A DNA stretch of 21,008 nt. It comes from a virus (Duplodnaviria > Heunggongvirae > Uroviricota > Caudoviricetes). The notes under the pieces are model-generated. The model was not told the DNA's origin and made no database searches. It worked only from the letters and a program-made list of their open reading frames with translations. The stretch lies in IMG/VR virus record IMGVR_UViG_2671180458_000004; one strand, 5' to 3'. A program made the translations under genes and the position numbers. Below, piece after piece: positions 1,414 to 19,505 of the stretch (its first letter is position 1; each line of letters begins with the position of its first letter).

Positions 1414-2361
1414 TTACAGATAATCCGCGACAACCAGCTCCAGCTTGCCCTTCATCTCGTTAGAGACGGTTGCGTTTCCGTCTGCGAACAGTTCACGCTC
1501 CAGCAACTGCACCGCCTGTTTTTCCAGCGAGGTGGGGACAACAATATGGGTGGGTTTAATGCCGAGTTTGCGGCCACCGTCAGCGGTAAATTCGCGCATG
1601 GCTGACCAGCCGTGCCACAGTGCATCCAGCGTCAGCGGTGACTGCATCATGTAGGCCATCTGCCAGAAGCCGTAGCCCACATTGCGACGGGCGGATGCAC
1701 CAAACACAAATTCGTTATCGGTGAATGCGCGACCTTCATCGACTTTGGTCTGGGCAACCAGTTCAGCCTTACGGCGATCCTGATAAATCAGCGGTTTTAC
1801 CGCGCGTGAACAGTCAAGCAGATACCAGGCCGGACCGCTGTAATCCGCCTGTGCGCCGACAGAGCCGGTTTTTGCCACAAACATATTGCTGACCATCTGC
1901 GCATCCCCGGAGCCATCCACTTTGGGGTAAACCGGATGTTCGGTATCAAAGAAGTTCTGACCGTCATAGCAGGCCGCACTGATCCCGTCACGCAGGGCAG
2001 CAAAGACCAGCTCATCCGGTTGTACCGCCGCAGCGCGCCCCATCTCCTGAAACAACGGGGAATAAATACCGAGGTTGTCGTCTTCGAAGTCATCGCGGCT
2101 AATGGCGACAGTGCCTTCAAAAGTTTTGTTCACGATGGCATAGCCATAGGCTTTCATCTTCTCGATGACGCGGGAGCCGATCCACTCACGGAACTGCGGG
2201 AACTGCCCCAGCCAGCCGTAGGTGTTGGATTTCGAGGTGGAGGGCACGGTCATCGCAATTTTTTTGTACTGCGACGGGGCCATGGACATCCCGGCCTGAA
2301 AATCAGAACGGTAGCCCGTCATCAGGGCGGTGATCATCGCCGGTGTAATCGGGGTAGGCAT
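1414..2361 (-). CDS. T: Major capsid protein (Mu T/gp34-like)
   Basis: 315 aa, close to Mu T (about 305 aa); AGAGGAAA RBS; follows I as in Mu. Confidence 0.9.
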   Translation of the reverse strand: MPTPITPAMITALMTGYRSDFQAGMSMAPSQYKKIAMTVPSTSKSNTYGWLGQFPQFREWIGSRVIEKMKAYGYAIVNKTFEGTVAISRDDFEDDNLGIYSPLFQEMGRAAAVQPDELVFAALRDGISAACYDGQNFFDTEHPVYPKVDGSGDAQMVSNMFVAKTGSVGAQADYSGPAWYLLDCSRAVKPLIYQDRRKAELVAQTKVDEGRAFTDNEFVFGASARRNVGYGFWQMAYMMQSPLTLDALWHGWSAMREFTADGGRKLGIKPTHIVVPTSLEKQAVQLLERELFADGNATVSNEMKGKLELVVADYL

Positions 2362-3494
2362 TATTGCATTTCCTCTTTCATTTTCAGGAACTCGGCTTCG
2401 GTTTTACCCAGCAGATGGGCAGCGGCGATATCTTCAGCCGACAGCGCAGCGGTGGCAGTCTTTTTATCCGGCACGGTCACGGTGTCGGTCTGAAGGCCGG
2501 TCAGGGCCGCAACCGGCTGTCGGGCGTCAAGCTGTGCAGAAAGTGCCGCAACACCAATCTGCCCACCCAGTTGTTCCAGATAGCCGCGTTCGCTTTTGAA
2601 GATGCGCCCTTCGGATTCAGCCTTGTCCAGCACCTGCTCCAGTGTGGTGCTGCCGTGCTGTGCCGACAGCGCAACGTATTCGGTACGCAGGGCGTTATAC
2701 GTTTCAACGGGCACGTATTTCGTCAGATCAATACTGCCTCCAGCCGGTGTGCCTTTTGCGGTTTCCAGCTCTGCCGACAGACTGGCGACCTGTGTTTTCA
2801 GGTTGTCGTGTGCATCCGCACGGGTTTTGATCCCGGTGAGTGCAGACAGCGCCGCCGTGCCCAGCTCCGGCGTAAATTCGTCACCGTCAGCCACGGTCAG
2901 ACCGAGCGCCGTCAGCAACTGGCGTAATTGCTCATTCATGGGGTGTTGCTCCTGAGAAGGGGAAACTACATAGAGATCGTCAGCACTGAGTGCTGCGACA
3001 GGGTTCATACCCGTAATACCTGGATCATTCGTCAGGGAAGCCATGCGCAACAGGTAGGGTTCCCCGGTGTCAGCGAAATAATGCATATACGCAGACAGAT
3101 AGGCATATTCACGGTCATCAATATGTTTTTGGGCCTGCGGCGTCCATTCAGGTTTAATGAAAATCCCCTGACCCTCACGCCATTCGATGTTTTCCGGCTT
3201 AACCCAACCTGCGGCAATGGCCTTAAATCCGTTTTTCTGCGCATTCATGGAGTGATGGTCATAATCAATCAGTAACGGCTGATTCAGGGCGGAAAGCCCG
3301 GCTTTCATCCGGTTGCAGGCGGATTCGTTAATCAGCCAGCCTTCAGCCGGTTTTTCCGGGCGACCGTCACGGGCCTTTACCCTGCCTGCTGGCAGTAACT
3401 GACACCATCCGTCGCCGGATGCAGTCAGCGAAGCTGAAAGCACGGCTAAACCAGAGGGGCGATTTGCGTCTTTTGGGTGATTTTCTGTCTTCAT
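2361..3494 (-). CDS. I: Mu I-like head protease/scaffold protein (gp32-like)
   Basis: 377 aa; stop overlaps the T start (TAATG); no clear SD at the listed start, so the true start may differ. Confidence 0.85.
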   Translation of the reverse strand: MKTENHPKDANRPSGLAVLSASLTASGDGWCQLLPAGRVKARDGRPEKPAEGWLINESACNRMKAGLSALNQPLLIDYDHHSMNAQKNGFKAIAAGWVKPENIEWREGQGIFIKPEWTPQAQKHIDDREYAYLSAYMHYFADTGEPYLLRMASLTNDPGITGMNPVAALSADDLYVVSPSQEQHPMNEQLRQLLTALGLTVADGDEFTPELGTAALSALTGIKTRADAHDNLKTQVASLSAELETAKGTPAGGSIDLTKYVPVETYNALRTEYVALSAQHGSTTLEQVLDKAESEGRIFKSERGYLEQLGGQIGVAALSAQLDARQPVAALTGLQTDTVTVPDKKTATAALSAEDIAAAHLLGKTEAEFLKMKEEMQ

Positions 3495-3669
3495 ACCGGC
3501 AGCATAAGCCGGGAATTTTCAGGGCGGGTTTTGCGGGATTTCAGGAAGTATTTTCAGGGAAAAATGCAAAGGCGCTTCACGCAGATTTTAAAGCCCGTTA
3601 AATACAGGTTAGAAAATCACGACACGCGCCTGAAGGGGGTAAGGTAATGCATTTGCATACCTTAAACAA
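3495..3669 (-). promoter_or_regulatory. Candidate late promoter region upstream of I, with three direct TTTCAGG repeats
   Basis: 175-bp ORF-free gap; TTTCAGG on the plus strand at 3517-3523, 3539-3545 and 3552-3558; short inverted repeat ATGCA-TT-TGCAT at 3647-3658; position corresponds to Mu late promoter P_I. Confidence 0.4.
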
Positions 3670-4143
3670 TTAAGGCGTTTCTGTGGCCTTTTTAAAGCGT
3701 TTTCTGATTTCGTCCATGATCTCCTGCTCTGCCACCTGATCAAAGCCCATATACGGGCGTGCACCAATGGCCGCCGGTCCCGGTGGCATACCGGGCAGGC
3801 CACCCCACTGATGAATGGCCGCATAAGGCTCATTTGATCCAATCAGCGCCCAGGTGTCGCCATAATCCGTGGTCAGGCGTCGGGCCAGATCGCCGTTCAG
3901 CGTCAGGATTTTGCCGGGCATGTATCCCTTACGGGTACGCCACTTGCGGTAAGGATCTGACCAGTCATGCCAGCGTTCGCCGTCCGGCTCTTTTTCCTGT
4001 TCAAACGCCATTTCTGAGGATGACAGAAGGCTGGACGCCACACTGCGGGCCAGGTCTTTTCCGCCACCCACAAACTGAAGCCGGGCAAAGACCCGCTGGA
4101 GACGCGTAACGTCAACAACGACAGCGGCATCAATGGATGACAT
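3670..4143 (-). CDS. G: Mu G-like virion morphogenesis protein (gp31-like)
   Basis: 157 aa, the size of Mu G; GGAGG about 5 nt upstream of the ATG. Confidence 0.85.
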   Translation of the reverse strand: MSSIDAAVVVDVTRLQRVFARLQFVGGGKDLARSVASSLLSSSEMAFEQEKEPDGERWHDWSDPYRKWRTRKGYMPGKILTLNGDLARRLTTDYGDTWALIGSNEPYAAIHQWGGLPGMPPGPAAIGARPYMGFDQVAEQEIMDEIRKRFKKATETP

Positions 4144-4170: not shown

Positions 4171-4265
4171 AAATAAACAGGCGGTCAGTGTACGCTTAAC
4201 TGGTAAAGTCGGTGCCTGCCTCCGGGTGGATCATGTATGCGGGTTCGACCCCCGCCACTGACCGT
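4171..4265. other. Structured element in the F-G gap: long closing stem plus an inner hairpin with a tRNA T-arm-like loop; terminator-like on the minus strand
   Basis: Plus strand: GTCAGTG (4184-4190) pairs perfectly with CACTGAC (4256-4262); inner hairpin GCGGG-TTCGACC-CCCGC (4239-4255). Minus strand: the structure is followed by CTGTTTATTTTATATT. Confidence 0.35.
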
Positions 4266-5596
4266 TAATCAATATCTCCTTCCAGTACCTCAAGCATTCC
4301 GCCCCGGATATCCGATTTCAGCTTATCCATATTGATAACCCGGTAAGCATTCACAATCACATCCAGTTTATCCGGCTGACGCTTCAGGCTGTACGGCGCA
4401 TTAACGGCAATCTGCACACTGCCATCCTTACTTTCCACGATATACATCAGATTGTTGTGGCGTTTATCCCACAGTACCGCTTTTGGCGCGGCCAGCATTG
4501 CCGGTAATCGCCCGAAATCCTCCGGCGTCAGGGCGATACCGTCATTCTGATGTTTCATGCTGTCCGCATGGAGCACATTTTTACCGCTCATCGCCAGCAG
4601 GCGGGCCGGTGGCGTTCCCGTCCGGCTTTCCACCGCCTGCGCAATGCTTTCGGTCATAAAGCCCAGCGTGCGGATATCGTTACCGCCTCGCCGGGTTTTC
4701 ATGATGTTTTTTGCCCAGATGCGAAATGCCAGCTGCCGCTCCGGGCTGTTGTTCATCTCCTGAACCACCATTTCCCGTAACGCCGGGCTTTTCACTTCGA
4801 TCAGCTTGCGGATCAGCGCCTGGTCTGTGCCGAACGCCGCCGAACCGGGGTTATATGACCAGCCCACATCCGGTGTCATGGTTCTGGTGCCATCTGAATA
4901 TGTGGTCACCGGCATTTCTCTGACTTCTCCGGTCTGCTTATCCACGCCAGCCTCAACATTGCGGGTGGAGAGATGATCCTGACCGGATGAAACAGACAGC
5001 CCCATCGCATCCAGACGGGCCTGAGACAATGGCCGGACACGGCAGCGACAGTTCCAGCCATTGGGCGGGTAGTGTGTATTCCAGAACGGATCGTCATAGC
5101 GGAATACCAGCCCGTTAAGGGCGGAATGTGCCGGGCGGGTGCGGCTGTCCATCACCGCCACATACTGCCAGAACGGATGCGTGTCCGTGTTGTTCATCAT
5201 CTGCGTGTAACGCCCGGCATTGTAAGCCACACGGGTGTTCACGTTGTAAATCAGCGCCAGACGGCGGGGACTGCCCAGCTGCACTTCTTCCGCGTTACCG
5301 GCACTGTCCACCACAATCTGTTTTCCCCACCATCCCAGCTTTTGCAGGCGGGGTGTCAGCGTGCGAATAAATGCTTTCTGTGAAATCCCCTCATCAACAG
5401 CACGCTGCACTTCCGCCTGTAGTGTGGTCAGTACGTCCAGGCGTGCCACTTTTGCCGCCGTGAATGAACGGGCATGAACATCCGCGTCTGTTTCGAACCA
5501 GTTCCAGCTGATATGCGCCCCTTTGGCGCGGAAGTATGCCACCGCCTCTTTTGAGGCAAGTGTGGCGGCATAACCTAAATCAATCCCCTGTGCCAT
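4265..5596 (-). CDS. F: Mu F-like head morphogenesis protein (gp30-like)
   Basis: 443 aa; start overlaps the portal 3' end by 17 nt; family assignment from recall of Mu F-like proteins. Confidence 0.88.
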   Translation of the reverse strand: MAQGIDLGYAATLASKEAVAYFRAKGAHISWNWFETDADVHARSFTAAKVARLDVLTTLQAEVQRAVDEGISQKAFIRTLTPRLQKLGWWGKQIVVDSAGNAEEVQLGSPRRLALIYNVNTRVAYNAGRYTQMMNNTDTHPFWQYVAVMDSRTRPAHSALNGLVFRYDDPFWNTHYPPNGWNCRCRVRPLSQARLDAMGLSVSSGQDHLSTRNVEAGVDKQTGEVREMPVTTYSDGTRTMTPDVGWSYNPGSAAFGTDQALIRKLIEVKSPALREMVVQEMNNSPERQLAFRIWAKNIMKTRRGGNDIRTLGFMTESIAQAVESRTGTPPARLLAMSGKNVLHADSMKHQNDGIALTPEDFGRLPAMLAAPKAVLWDKRHNNLMYIVESKDGSVQIAVNAPYSLKRQPDKLDVIVNAYRVINMDKLKSDIRGGMLEVLEGDID

Positions 5597-8833: not shown

Positions 8834-9414
8834 CAGGCTTTACCCAACAGAATCCCCTTAATACGGGACTCAAGCTGTTCACTCATCCCGTCCACGCCGC
8901 GCAGCTCGTCGGTGACCGCGTTTGCCATCTCTTCAGCAAATGCGGCCCGGATTTCTTTTTCACGCTTAATGCTGCGCTCGGCGGCACTTTCCGCACGCTG
9001 TGCTGACAGGAGGATGTCTTTGATGAGGCGCATATCCACGTCGCTGTCGCTGTTCAGAGATTCGGTCGCGGCACGCAGGCGGCGGTACATCAGGGCGCGG
9101 GACATTTCCAGAATCAGCGCTGTGGTTTCACCGGTTGGCTTGTCCCCCAGTTCGGCCATCATGGCTTTTGTCTGCTCGCGTAAATCACGCAGGTTACGGG
9201 CAATCAGCTCATTACGGGAGGCTTCCCGGCTGATGGCCGCCGGTGAAAGCTGCTGCTCTTCCGGCAGGCCCGCCTCACGGATCAGACGGTTGATTTCCTC
9301 GCGGATCTGGACCTGCGTCAGACGTTTTTCACGCAGCATTTCCAGCAGCGGCTTACGGATGCTGTCGGGGAGCAAATCCACCTTGCGTACACGACCACGC
9401 GTCGGCTTGTCCAT
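8833..9414 (-). CDS. Terminase small subunit (Mu gp27-like, DUF3486-type)
   Basis: 193 aa, charged and helical; AAGGGGGT RBS; its stop overlaps the large-terminase start (ATGA). Confidence 0.75.
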   Translation of the reverse strand: MDKPTRGRVRKVDLLPDSIRKPLLEMLREKRLTQVQIREEINRLIREAGLPEEQQLSPAAISREASRNELIARNLRDLREQTKAMMAELGDKPTGETTALILEMSRALMYRRLRAATESLNSDSDVDMRLIKDILLSAQRAESAAERSIKREKEIRAAFAEEMANAVTDELRGVDGMSEQLESRIKGILLGKA

Positions 9415-10895: not shown

Positions 10896-11396
10896 TCAGA
10901 CTTTCGGCAAGTCGTAGCGACATAACCATTCATCCGCCGAACGGCGGGCCTCAAGGCCGGGGAGTTTCACCCCCTTTGAATAAATCCAGCGGATATACTG
11001 CTTACAGGACGCGGGCATCTGCCCGGCATTGATCAGGCGCAGAAGCGTGGAGTTGCGGAAGTTCGTTTCACCGGCCCAGAAGATCCACGAAGCCAGCGCC
11101 ACCGTCTGACCACGGGTAAGCGGCACCTGAACACGCCGATCAATGGCCGCAAAGGCCCATTTCATGTCCTTTTCCAGCAGTTCCAGGCATTCTTCATCCG
11201 TCAGGGTCATACCCGGTTTCACATCCGGGCCGGTATGGCCGTAACAGATGGTGGGTGTACCGGTGGGATCGATATACGTGGAGTTTTCTTTCCCTTCCCA
11301 GTAACCGGTGTAATGCGTGGCAATCGTGAACGTCCCGGCACCGGCCAGAACAAGGGCAATCAGCTTTTTACGCAGTGGTGCGGGGAGTTTTGGCAT
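10896..11396 (-). CDS. lys: Endolysin, T4-lysozyme-like (GH24) with N-terminal signal-anchor-release domain
   Basis: 166 aa; basic N-terminus MPKLPAPLRKK followed by a Gly/Ala-rich weakly hydrophobic stretch; catalytic spacing E-x8-D-x5-T in YWEGKENSTYIDPTGTPT. Confidence 0.9.
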   Translation of the reverse strand: MPKLPAPLRKKLIALVLAGAGTFTIATHYTGYWEGKENSTYIDPTGTPTICYGHTGPDVKPGMTLTDEECLELLEKDMKWAFAAIDRRVQVPLTRGQTVALASWIFWAGETNFRNSTLLRLINAGQMPASCKQYIRWIYSKGVKLPGLEARRSADEWLCRYDLPKV

Positions 11397-11467
11397 TGTT
11401 ACGCTGTCTCATGATGTTCTCTGAGTCAGCGTAACGGTGAAGGAAAGGCGGCAGGCTTTGCGGAATA
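11397..11467 (-). promoter_or_regulatory. Candidate activator-dependent late promoter / 5' leader of lys, with a 9-bp inverted repeat
   Basis: 71-bp gap between the mor stop and lys ATG; perfect inverted repeat GTTACGCTG (11398-11406) / CAGCGTAAC (11427-11435), 20-bp spacer, left arm abutting the lys start; position analogous to Mu Plys. Confidence 0.4.
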
Positions 11468-11893
11468 TCAGAAAAGTGGCGGTTGCGTTCTTGCCAGATG
11501 CAGACGGCGCTGTTCGCGTATGACGGTATAAATCTGGGTTTCTGACATCCGGTAATGGCGGCGAAGGGATTCAATTTTCTCGCCCCGGTCCCAGCGCGAA
11601 AATATCTCATTGTTTCGCAGCTCGGCAAAGAGAGATTCCCCGACCGGCAGGTAATAACCCCGTCCGCCCATATAGGCTGCCTGAGCCGCAGCCACCTTGC
11701 GTGCCAGTTTACCGGCCAGTACCGGCTCAATCCCCTGACGCTGAAGTTCTGCGCCAGTGACTTCAACCAGTTCTGACAGGGTCCGCGGCCAGTTCTTTTT
11801 GAGAACATCATCAGGGATGTCATCAAGGCGGTCGATAAGGGCGTGCAGTTGCTCACTGTCACCACCAAACATGCTCATCTGAGTTTCTGCCAT
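11468..11893 (-). CDS. mor: Mor/C-family transcriptional activator (middle/late gene activator)
   Basis: 141 aa, the size of Mu Mor (129 aa) and C (140 aa); GGAGG about 6 nt upstream; located between gemA and lys. Confidence 0.85.
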   Translation of the reverse strand: MAETQMSMFGGDSEQLHALIDRLDDIPDDVLKKNWPRTLSELVEVTGAELQRQGIEPVLAGKLARKVAAAQAAYMGGRGYYLPVGESLFAELRNNEIFSRWDRGEKIESLRRHYRMSETQIYTVIREQRRLHLARTQPPLF

Positions 11894-11925
11894 ATCAGCC
11901 TCCGGTTCTCGCGTTCCCGGTAAGT

Positions 11926-11958
11926 TTAAAATAAAAATCCCGCGTTGTGGCGGGATTT
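11926..11958 (-). terminator. Rho-independent terminator/attenuator between gemA and mor
   Basis: Perfect 9-bp stem AAATCCCGC/GCGGGATTT (11935-11943 with 11950-11958) around a 6-nt loop; on the minus strand it is followed by TTTTATTTT; begins 4 nt after the gemA stop. Confidence 0.7.
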
Positions 11959-11962
11959 GGGG

Positions 11963-12472
11963 TTAACGGGGAAGTGATTTTTCATACTGCCTGCAAACGG
12001 CGTCATACCCCATCAGCGTGCGTTCGGGCATTCCCATCGCGGCCAGCATTTTGCGGCGGTGCCATCGCTTGAGACGCTCCAGCACATCTGAGGCCAGGGC
12101 GGGGTGTTGCTCCAGCCACTGCCAGTTTGCCACACCTTCGCCGCCGTTTTGCGCGGCCGTCTGCGATTTCACCCAGCGGTTAAGGGCGGTTTCCGCACCA
12201 TCAGAGATAAAGCCCTGCCGGTGCATCACCTTCCAGATGGCGCGAATTTTAGCGGTCACCGTACCCGGTTTTAAGGCCCGGTTAACCGGGTTCTGACGCA
12301 CTTTAAAACCGCGTTTTTTGAAAACATCCAGCACGCGGGACAACTCATCCGGTGACATATCCCGGCAGCTGGTTTTGCCGGTGGCTGCCAGCAGCACGAA
12401 TGTATAAGTCTCATCATCCAGGGCAAGCTCGCGCTTTGCCACATGAATGGCGGATATCAGTTTTCCTCTCAT
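11963..12472 (-). CDS. gemA: GemA-family protein (Mu gp16-like, DUF1018)
   Basis: 169 aa; N-terminal MRGKLISAIHVAKRELALDDETY pattern recalled as typical of Mu GemA homologs; sits just upstream of mor as in Mu. Confidence 0.8.
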   Translation of the reverse strand: MRGKLISAIHVAKRELALDDETYTFVLLAATGKTSCRDMSPDELSRVLDVFKKRGFKVRQNPVNRALKPGTVTAKIRAIWKVMHRQGFISDGAETALNRWVKSQTAAQNGGEGVANWQWLEQHPALASDVLERLKRWHRRKMLAAMGMPERTLMGYDAVCRQYEKSLPR

Positions 12473-19434: not shown

Positions 19435-19469
19435 ATTATTAACCTCTCATTTGATACCTTGTTTAATCA

Positions 19470-19505
19470 AATAACCTGAGTCGCCGCTCGGGTTATTTTT
19501 TTATT
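19470..19505 (+). terminator. Terminator-like hairpin in the A-B gap, oriented for the plus strand (antisense to the genes)
   Basis: About 11-bp stem (19470-19480 with 19487-19497, one G-U) around loop TCGCCG, followed on the plus strand by TTTTTTTATTT; on the minus strand no U-tract follows. Confidence 0.4.

Follow-up and report, generated by a model that had tools for sequence, protein, structure and literature searches.

Phage Mu follows a textbook three-stage cascade, in which early transcription leads to Mor, Mor to C, and C to the late genes. Many Mu-like prophages, including the one analysed here, have a single activator of the Mor/C family, and the working of the lytic timer depends on where its gene lies with respect to the early terminator. 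In the 21,008-nucleotide stretch of viral DNA studied here, which we refer to as the window, a terminator-like hairpin lies directly before the activator gene. The question raised by this locus is whether the gene is reached by transcripts that read through the hairpin, as an earlier note on this DNA had proposed, or has a promoter of its own. With a terminator that merely leaks, the efficiency of termination and the copy number would set the timing; with a self-activated promoter overlapping it, the junction would be a compact bistable switch. On either reading the junction is a simple and testable handle on late-gene timing.

The genes of the junction region are all on the minus strand, and the features that frame it are as follows.

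11963–12472, minus strand: gemA (gp16 family), from the ORF list; Pfam PF06252 (GemA), E = 1.2e-29
11899–11903, minus strand: Shine-Dalgarno sequence GGAGG of the activator gene, read from the sequence and kept in the alignment
11468–11893, minus strand: gene of the Mor/C-family activator; Pfam PF08765 (Mor), E = 2.8e-32
11397–11467, minus strand: 71-nt gap between the activator and lysozyme genes, read from the sequence
10896–11396, minus strand: lysozyme (endolysin), the first lysis gene; Pfam PF00959, E = 6.3e-37

The gemA gene has 169 codons and ends with a TAA stop at 11963–11965; its product is 43% identical to Mu GemA, and it is the last early-operon gene within the window. The activator gene begins with an ATG at 11893, and its product shares 39% identity with Mu C (E = 4e-35) and 27% with Mu Mor (E = 3e-14). 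The PGAP map of an E. coli prophage with 99.7% identity shows no other Mor-family CDS and labels gemA 'gp16 family protein'. The activator gene had previously been called mor; since the single activator is nearer to Mu C than to Mu Mor, it is better named a C-like activator.

The same PGAP map gives a gene order of Ner-like HTH protein, transposase, AAA ATPase, about fifteen small genes, Gam and gp16, followed by the Mor-family gene, lysozyme, spanins, TraR and then the head genes. Of 5426 complete E. coli genomes, 231 carry prophages with this region, and many of these are O157:H7. This prophage type has also inserted into Shiga-toxin phages: two Shiga-toxin phage records contain segments labelled 'inserted Mu-like phage' that match the region at 98–99.8% identity. 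We take the prophage type to be Sp18 of strain Sakai. In a published paper on the prophages of Sakai, Sp18 is predicted to be intact and Mu-like; a search of the literature on Sp18 found no transcript mapping of the junction between gemA and the activator gene.

The hairpin downstream of gemA

Between the gemA stop codon and the activator gene the minus strand contains an inverted repeat followed by a run of T residues.

11950–11958, minus strand: 5' arm of the hairpin, AAATCCCGC, read from the sequence
11944–11949, minus strand: loop, CACAAC, read from the sequence
11935–11943, minus strand: 3' arm of the hairpin, GCGGGATTT, from sequence and folding
11928–11934, minus strand: T-rich tail, TTATTTT, with 6 T among the first 8 nt past the stem

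The stem has nine perfect pairs, five of them G-C, and encloses a 6-nt loop. Its 5' arm, which contains the motif AATCCC (11957–11952, minus strand), is separated from the gemA stop by four nucleotides (CCCC), and 41 nt lie between the end of the stem and the activator ATG. The letters after the 3' arm are TTATTTTAAA (11934–11925, minus strand), with a further 31 nt, GGAGG among them, before the activator ATG, and the tail read together with the TTT of the stem gives TTTTTATTTT. These values bear out what the earlier note had reported of the perfect 9-bp stem, its 6-nt loop, the T-rich tail and their coordinates, of the 4-nt distance from gemA and of the roughly 40 nt that remain before the activator gene; the tail that it quoted, TTTTATTTT, is the same T-run with the last Ts of the stem counted in.

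The hairpin alone folds with a predicted energy of −13.5 kcal/mol (z = −4.4 against dinucleotide shuffles), close to the −12.2 kcal/mol of the hairpin that follows mor in Mu. Its 101-nt context folds no better than shuffles (z = −1.7), and the hairpin is retained in the centroid structure. The plus-strand side is flanked by GGGG, and the structure is therefore terminator-like in one direction only.

A loose scan for terminators found 25 in the window against 17.6 ± 5 expected, with no overall enrichment. Because the loose pattern is common in the window, a strict version was counted, requiring at least 8 perfect Watson-Crick pairs, at least 4 of them G-C, a loop of 3–8 nt, and a minimum of 6 T among the 8 nt that follow. 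The junction hairpin is the sole strict match on both strands of the 21-kb window, and only 1 of 100 dinucleotide shuffles contained a strict match at any site. Every sequence feature of a Rho-independent terminator is present: the stem, loop and stability, the U-rich tract, and a rare occurrence placed at an operon boundary. The hairpin is likely to work as a terminator, which would end most early transcripts at 11926–11934.

An Rfam scan of the whole window gave no family match, and ARAGORN gave no tRNA in it. A sensor-controlled attenuator was considered and rejected, as there is no antiterminator structure or leader RNA family upstream and the hairpin begins immediately past gemA, at the 4-nt distance given above. 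Two further structures in the window were seen in passing. In the near-identical prophage PGAP annotates a 'tRNA-OTHER' at about 4188–4272 (plus strand), between the head-morphogenesis and virion-morphogenesis genes, for which ARAGORN and Rfam return nothing. At 19469–19498 (plus strand), antisense inside the transposase gene, lies a 13-pair hairpin, AAATAACCTGAG...CTCGGGTTATTT, followed by TTTTATTT; terminator-like structures this strong are unusual in coding sequence.

Conservation and variation of the junction

Related loci were drawn from IMG/VR and from one Edwardsiella genome; a scan of genome contigs yielded one locus only. The gene order gemA, activator, lysozyme is common to all the collected relatives. 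The core of the module, ATCCCGC-loop-GCGGGAT, is found in eight lineages, whose activators are 44–60% identical to that of the window, and in every case it comes after the last co-oriented early gene, 33–50 nt ahead of the activator ATG. The T-run is retained in seven of the eight lineages. The loop is free in sequence (CACAAC, CACAGC, TAATCG, ATTATC, ATCC, GTCA, CAACGT) and ranges in length from 4 nt to the roughly 9 nt of lineage L038. In two E. coli sub-lineages of about 85% identity the block from TTAACCCC to AAACTT differs by a single loop substitution, and the approximately 20 nt past AAACTT are largely diverged. In a more distant Mor-like group (P0095-like) the module is absent, and translation of the gene is often coupled to that of its upstream neighbour, as it is in Mu; scans with two further probes, P0096 and P0097, gave no matches.

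Among 16 distinct module sequences 97% of the cells are paired, six of the nine pairs never vary, and a 7-bp stem core is invariant in all 16. Changes on both sides of a pair occur at two pairs and in lineage L036 only, in which CCC/GGG replaces AAA/TTT in compensatory fashion; the L036 hairpin is also stronger (−22.3 kcal/mol) and is followed neither by a T-run nor by a −10-like hexamer. Because the stem hardly varies, the comparison is no evidence for or against an RNA stem. A hairpin just past the activator gene, present in six of these loci, served as a control, and there both-side changes are seen at 5 of 12 pairs. At this level of divergence ordinary hairpins of these phages thus drift by compensation and the junction hairpin does not, which indicates that its sequence is constrained as well as its pairing. 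A double constraint, with one arm recognised by its sequence and the other held by pairing, fits this pattern. Unrelated viral contigs, too, contain the stem core ATCCCGC...GCGGGAT with a T-run as a terminator-like hairpin, so identity of sequence need not mean recognition by a protein. The control stem-loop itself lies just past the activator stop in L006, L036, L038, L041, L043 and L045, where it is conserved and has no T-run.

Several lineages carry additional genes at the junction. In L095, L096 and L102 there are co-oriented extra genes after gemA, and the module lies 12 nt past the last of them. In L003, L020, L027 and L041 the junction has received a gene cassette and the hairpin is present twice, behind gemA and again ahead of the activator gene. 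The longest cassette ORF is on the opposite strand in L003, L020 and L027, and its orientation in L041 is ambiguous. In the three E. coli cases with an insert the gemA-side copy consists of the hairpin and T-rich tail only and the activator-side copy is the full block; in L041 the hexamer TATACT belongs to both copies. In L037 and L045 the only hairpin is the one behind gemA; its T-run is degraded, and a small co-oriented ORF follows.

The junction (equivalent to 11894–11962 of the window and to 2060–2830 of L003) is therefore a recurrent landing site for extra genes. The accessory ORFs found there in these seven lineages (L003, L020, L027, L041, L095, L096 and L102) encode 110–145 aa, lie on either strand and have no Pfam match, and the cassettes are often flanked by two hairpin copies. 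In L026 an IS4-family transposase gene (1483–3001; 445 aa, with Nterm_IS4 and DDE_Tnp_1 domains) is located between gemA and the activator gene. The element replaces the 5' arm of the hairpin, with the breakpoint at GCCACAGC (about 11949 in the window), and contig L030 ends at the same base. L029, L031 and L014 are natural E. coli-lineage variants of 11935–11958. They include a T-to-C change in the 5' arm, which creates a C-A mismatch and weakens the stem from −13.5 to −9.6 kcal/mol; a separate natural variant has lost one T from the T-run.

A candidate promoter overlapping the probable terminator

A scan for canonical sigma-70 promoters reported none in the gap between gemA and the activator gene. 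The gap does contain a −10-like sequence that partly overlaps the end of the T-rich tail.

11923–11928, minus strand: −10-like hexamer TAAACT, with 4 of 6 matches including A2 and T6

TAAACT is kept in both E. coli sub-lineages. An alternative −10, TATTTT, lies at 11933–11928 (minus strand), and the best candidate for a −35 is GCCACA, which matches at 3 of 6 positions. In five lineages a −10-like hexamer stands past the T-run at a nearly fixed offset, reading TATAAT in Edwardsiella and L043 and TATACT in L038, L041 and L095. These hexamers also lack a −35, and the sequence that follows them cannot be aligned; the TAAACT of the window sits two nucleotides further along. Measured from the AATCCC of the 5' arm to the TAnnnT hexamer, the interval is 20 nt in copy 1 of L041, 21 nt in Edwardsiella, copy 2 of L041, L043 and L095, 22 nt in L038, and 23 nt in the window. 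This arrangement recalls the C-dependent and Mor-dependent promoters of Mu, a match with Plys that was noticed after the fact and for which the pattern AATCCC-N19-24-TAnnnT has 0.67 chance occurrences expected in the window. Counted from AAT to the −10, the distances are:

Mu Pm: 22 nt
Mu Plys and Pmom: 23 nt
Plys of the sister lineages: 23 nt
junction of relatives with a T-run: 23–25 nt
junction of the window: 26 nt

The spacing in the window is the worst of all the lineages, so a promoter there may be weak or dead in exactly this lineage. Of the 16-bp 5-6-5 dyad typical of Mor and C sites, whose proximal end is expected 22–23 nt upstream of the −10, only the proximal AAT-CCC motif is present. 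A distal half of the dyad was sought by eye upstream of AATCCC and not found; the TGACA that recurs there is partly the gemA stop codon. A further candidate, the inverted repeat itself as a Mor/C site centred at −43.5, was rejected, as transcription would then start within the Shine-Dalgarno sequence with no −10 hexamer, and the loop length varies.

The gap between the activator and lysozyme genes provides a comparison. In L006, L036, L038, L041, L043 and L045, where this gap is about 130 nt long, (A/T)AATCCC is followed after exactly 20 nt by TATCCT, TATTCT or TACCCT, which is the layout of Plys in Mu (AATCCC-N20-TAGACT). In the 71-nt gap of the window no AATCCC-N20-TAnnnT was found, and the counterpart of the TATCCT of the relatives reads TTTCCT. 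If the window has no Plys, lys is probably co-transcribed with the activator gene from whatever feeds the latter. The gap also contains an inverted repeat with 14-bp arms, GTTACGCTGACTCA and TGAGACAGCGTAAC, at 11398–11435 (minus strand), which ends 1 nt before the lys ATG; for the 86-nt region that includes it the folding energy is −21.5 kcal/mol (z = −3.7). Possibly the repeat forms a stem in the 5' UTR that acts on translation of lys or on the stability of its mRNA. At the equivalent site, just past the Plys-like −10, the hairpin of sister lineages differs in sequence.

Elsewhere in the window, the gap before the head protease gene (3500–3675, minus strand) contains GATTTT-TAACC-GTATTTAACGG, which it has in common with the PI region of Mu, as well as a near-palindrome, AAGGTATGCAAATGCATTACCTT, and a direct repeat, CCTGAAAAT. 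It is probably a PI-type late promoter region. A site for the activator was sought in this G–I gap, and no clear motif was found.

The reading that we favour is that a terminator and a −35-less promoter for the activator gene overlap at the junction, to which we assign a probability of roughly 45%. The hairpin and T-run would be a Rho-independent terminator that closes the early operon (transposition and accessory genes) of this Sp18-type prophage. The overlapping promoter would be weak and similar to Plys or Pm, with AATCCC as the activator-proximal motif, the T-run as spacer and TAAACT as the −10. After induction, early transcripts would mostly end at the hairpin; the fraction that leaks through would yield the first activator protein; and the activator, or another early factor, would then turn on the promoter, whose transcript in the E. 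coli lineage would probably also cover the downstream lysis genes. What favours this model is the conserved −10-like hexamer, the motif that resembles Plys, the invariance of the stem, and the variants with two hairpins and an antisense insert. The stem would be expected not to vary if one arm is recognised in the DNA, its partner keeps the complementary sequence, and the loop is left free. The full module stays beside the activator gene despite inserts on the opposite strand, and read-through in these variants would have to cross two tandem hairpins.

A more specific form of this model assigns both uses to the same 35 bp. In it, the C-like activator would recognise the 5' arm as its promoter-proximal motif and the 3' arm would exist for pairing in RNA, so that one segment would be both a terminator and a self-activated promoter, which in the E. 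coli lineage, where no Plys is recognisable, would serve the lysis genes as well; leakage would prime a positive-feedback switch in which one activator replaces the two-step Mor-to-C cascade. We regard this arrangement as tentative and rather unlikely.

The strongest alternative is that the hairpin is a leaky intrinsic terminator and nothing else, the activator gene having no promoter of its own and its product being made solely by read-through of early transcripts. Expression would be delayed and lowered, and its timing would come from the rise in copy number during replicative transposition. The canonical terminator features are all present and no canonical sigma-70 promoter was found in the gap; the putative −10 is weak and, at 26 nt, poorly spaced in this lineage; and L036 has the hairpin with neither T-run nor −10. 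That Mu and more distant Mu-like phages couple the mor-type gene to the early gene before it points the same way, as does published RNA-seq of a Pseudomonas Mu-like phage, in which gemA and mor belong to an early operon whose transcripts dwindle distally. However, this explanation does not account for the conserved TATAAT and TATACT, which lie beyond the length that a U-tract needs, nor for a stem that is invariant while the neighbouring hairpin covaries, and in the opposite-strand variants it requires passage through two tandem hairpins and a 640-nt antisense gene. It had also been argued that 41 nt is too little for an independent promoter. That point is not established, and the premise fails, since a promoter that overlaps the terminator needs no extra room; in Mu a gap of 78 bp holds, by our mapping, both a hairpin and Pm. 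Some dependence on read-through is plausible, given the terminator features, the position at the end of the early operon and the conservation of the module, but the claim that the activator depends on read-through alone is not supported. As an account of the whole locus, read-through only is possible, if somewhat doubtful.

A third explanation is that the hairpin serves mainly to stabilise the 3' end of the processed early mRNA, or that it is a junction sequence for cassette exchange kept uniform by recombination. It draws on the insertion hot spot between gemA and the activator gene, seen in at least four lineages and often with a hairpin copy on each side, on the IS4-family insertion in the L026 hairpin together with the contig that ends at the same base, and on L036, which keeps a stronger hairpin (−22.3 kcal/mol) in the absence of a T-run. 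We consider it improbable: seven of eight lineages retain the T-run, both the one-directional tail and the location just past a stop codon suit a terminator, and cassettes commonly insert at operon boundaries for neutral reasons.

Finally, the inverted repeat could be a duplex-DNA site (an operator or activator site) for a dimeric regulator rather than an RNA hairpin, a view in keeping with the invariant stem sequence, with the CCCGC-N6-GCGGG spacing that matches the 5-6-5 geometry reported for Mor and C sites, and with its overlap of the −35 and spacer region if TAAACT is the −10; it is very improbable, because the same arms are 4, 6 or about 9 nt apart, which a rigid dimer would not tolerate, the T-run always follows and on the coding strand only, the palindrome has no second copy elsewhere in the window, and the excess of its half-site there (10 occurrences against 4.7 ± 2.1 expected) is unconvincing.

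Comparison with Mu and with generic terminators

In Mu, gemA and mor overlap (ATGA) with no hairpin between them. As Mu and distant Mu-like phages both couple the mor-type gene to the upstream early gene, an arrangement with the activator as the last early gene appears to be ancestral. The hairpin of Mu lies after mor and reads AAAGCCGG-TTAAT-CCGGCTTT followed by TTTTACG, then TATCCT, with the next ATG 51 nt past the stem and the whole layout within the 78-bp gap. The hairpin and its T7 run occupy positions 9176–9203 of the Mu record, and are presumably the early-operon terminator t9.2. Published work on Pm describes a −10 hexamer and no −35, and a Mor site of 16 bp, composed of two 5-bp inverted repeats with a 6-bp G/C-rich spacer and centred at −43.5. 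On our mapping, the Mor site would correspond to AGTAA-AGCCGG-TTAAT, which overlaps the left half of the hairpin, and the TATCCT, Shine-Dalgarno sequence and ATG in the gap would represent Pm. The gap after C in Mu contains a hairpin, then ATAATCCCGC, and then GATTTTT-TAGACT (Plys); the region from −52 to −34 of Plys has been reported to be required for the action of C. Mu would thus, if mapped correctly, twice pack a hairpin and T-run together with an activator-dependent promoter into one short gap.

The resemblance of the window to the post-mor region of Mu is close. Both have a stop codon, a G+C-containing stem of 8–9 bp, a T-run, a −35-less hexamer that is −10-like in the window, a Shine-Dalgarno sequence and the next gene within a gap of 70–80 bp; the energies are similar (−12.2 kcal/mol in Mu and −13.5 kcal/mol here), and both hairpins mark the end of the early operon. 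In Mu an activator site that ends in TTAAT-CC overlaps the hairpin, again according to our mapping. The differences are in placement. The AATCC motif is in the loop and 3' arm in Mu whereas it is in the 5' arm in the window, and the hairpin is about 10 bp nearer to the −10 in the window. The Mu hairpin is downstream of mor, whereas that of the window is upstream of the only Mor/C gene; the activator gene is therefore on the far side of the terminator, and the early operon does not end behind it as in Mu.

Plys offers a second parallel. Its sequence, ATAATCCCGC-N11-GATTTTT-TAGACT, resembles the AAATCCCGC-N10-GATTTTTATTT-TAAACT of the window; neither has a recognisable −35, in both a T-run precedes the −10 or −10-like hexamer, both adjoin the lysis genes, and Plys is served by C, which the activator of the window resembles. 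In Plys, however, the spacer is unpaired with the AATCCCGC segment and the post-C hairpin lies upstream of that segment, and the distance from AAT to the −10 is 23 nt rather than 26. Plys is also downstream of C, whereas the Plys-like module of the window is upstream of the activator gene, a position that would imply self-activation.

In stem length, loop size, energy, U-tract and position after a stop codon the junction hairpin is like the generic Rho-independent terminators of enterobacteria and their phages, from which it differs in a stem sequence that is invariant across diverged lineages and in the conserved −10-like hexamer past its tail. A Rho-independent terminator at a phage operon boundary is ordinary, and Mu has a closely similar hairpin; the element is not of a new kind and holds little surprise for a Mu specialist. 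The wiring does differ from that of Mu, with the terminator placed before the sole late activator and not behind the first of two, and this is a modest but real variation.
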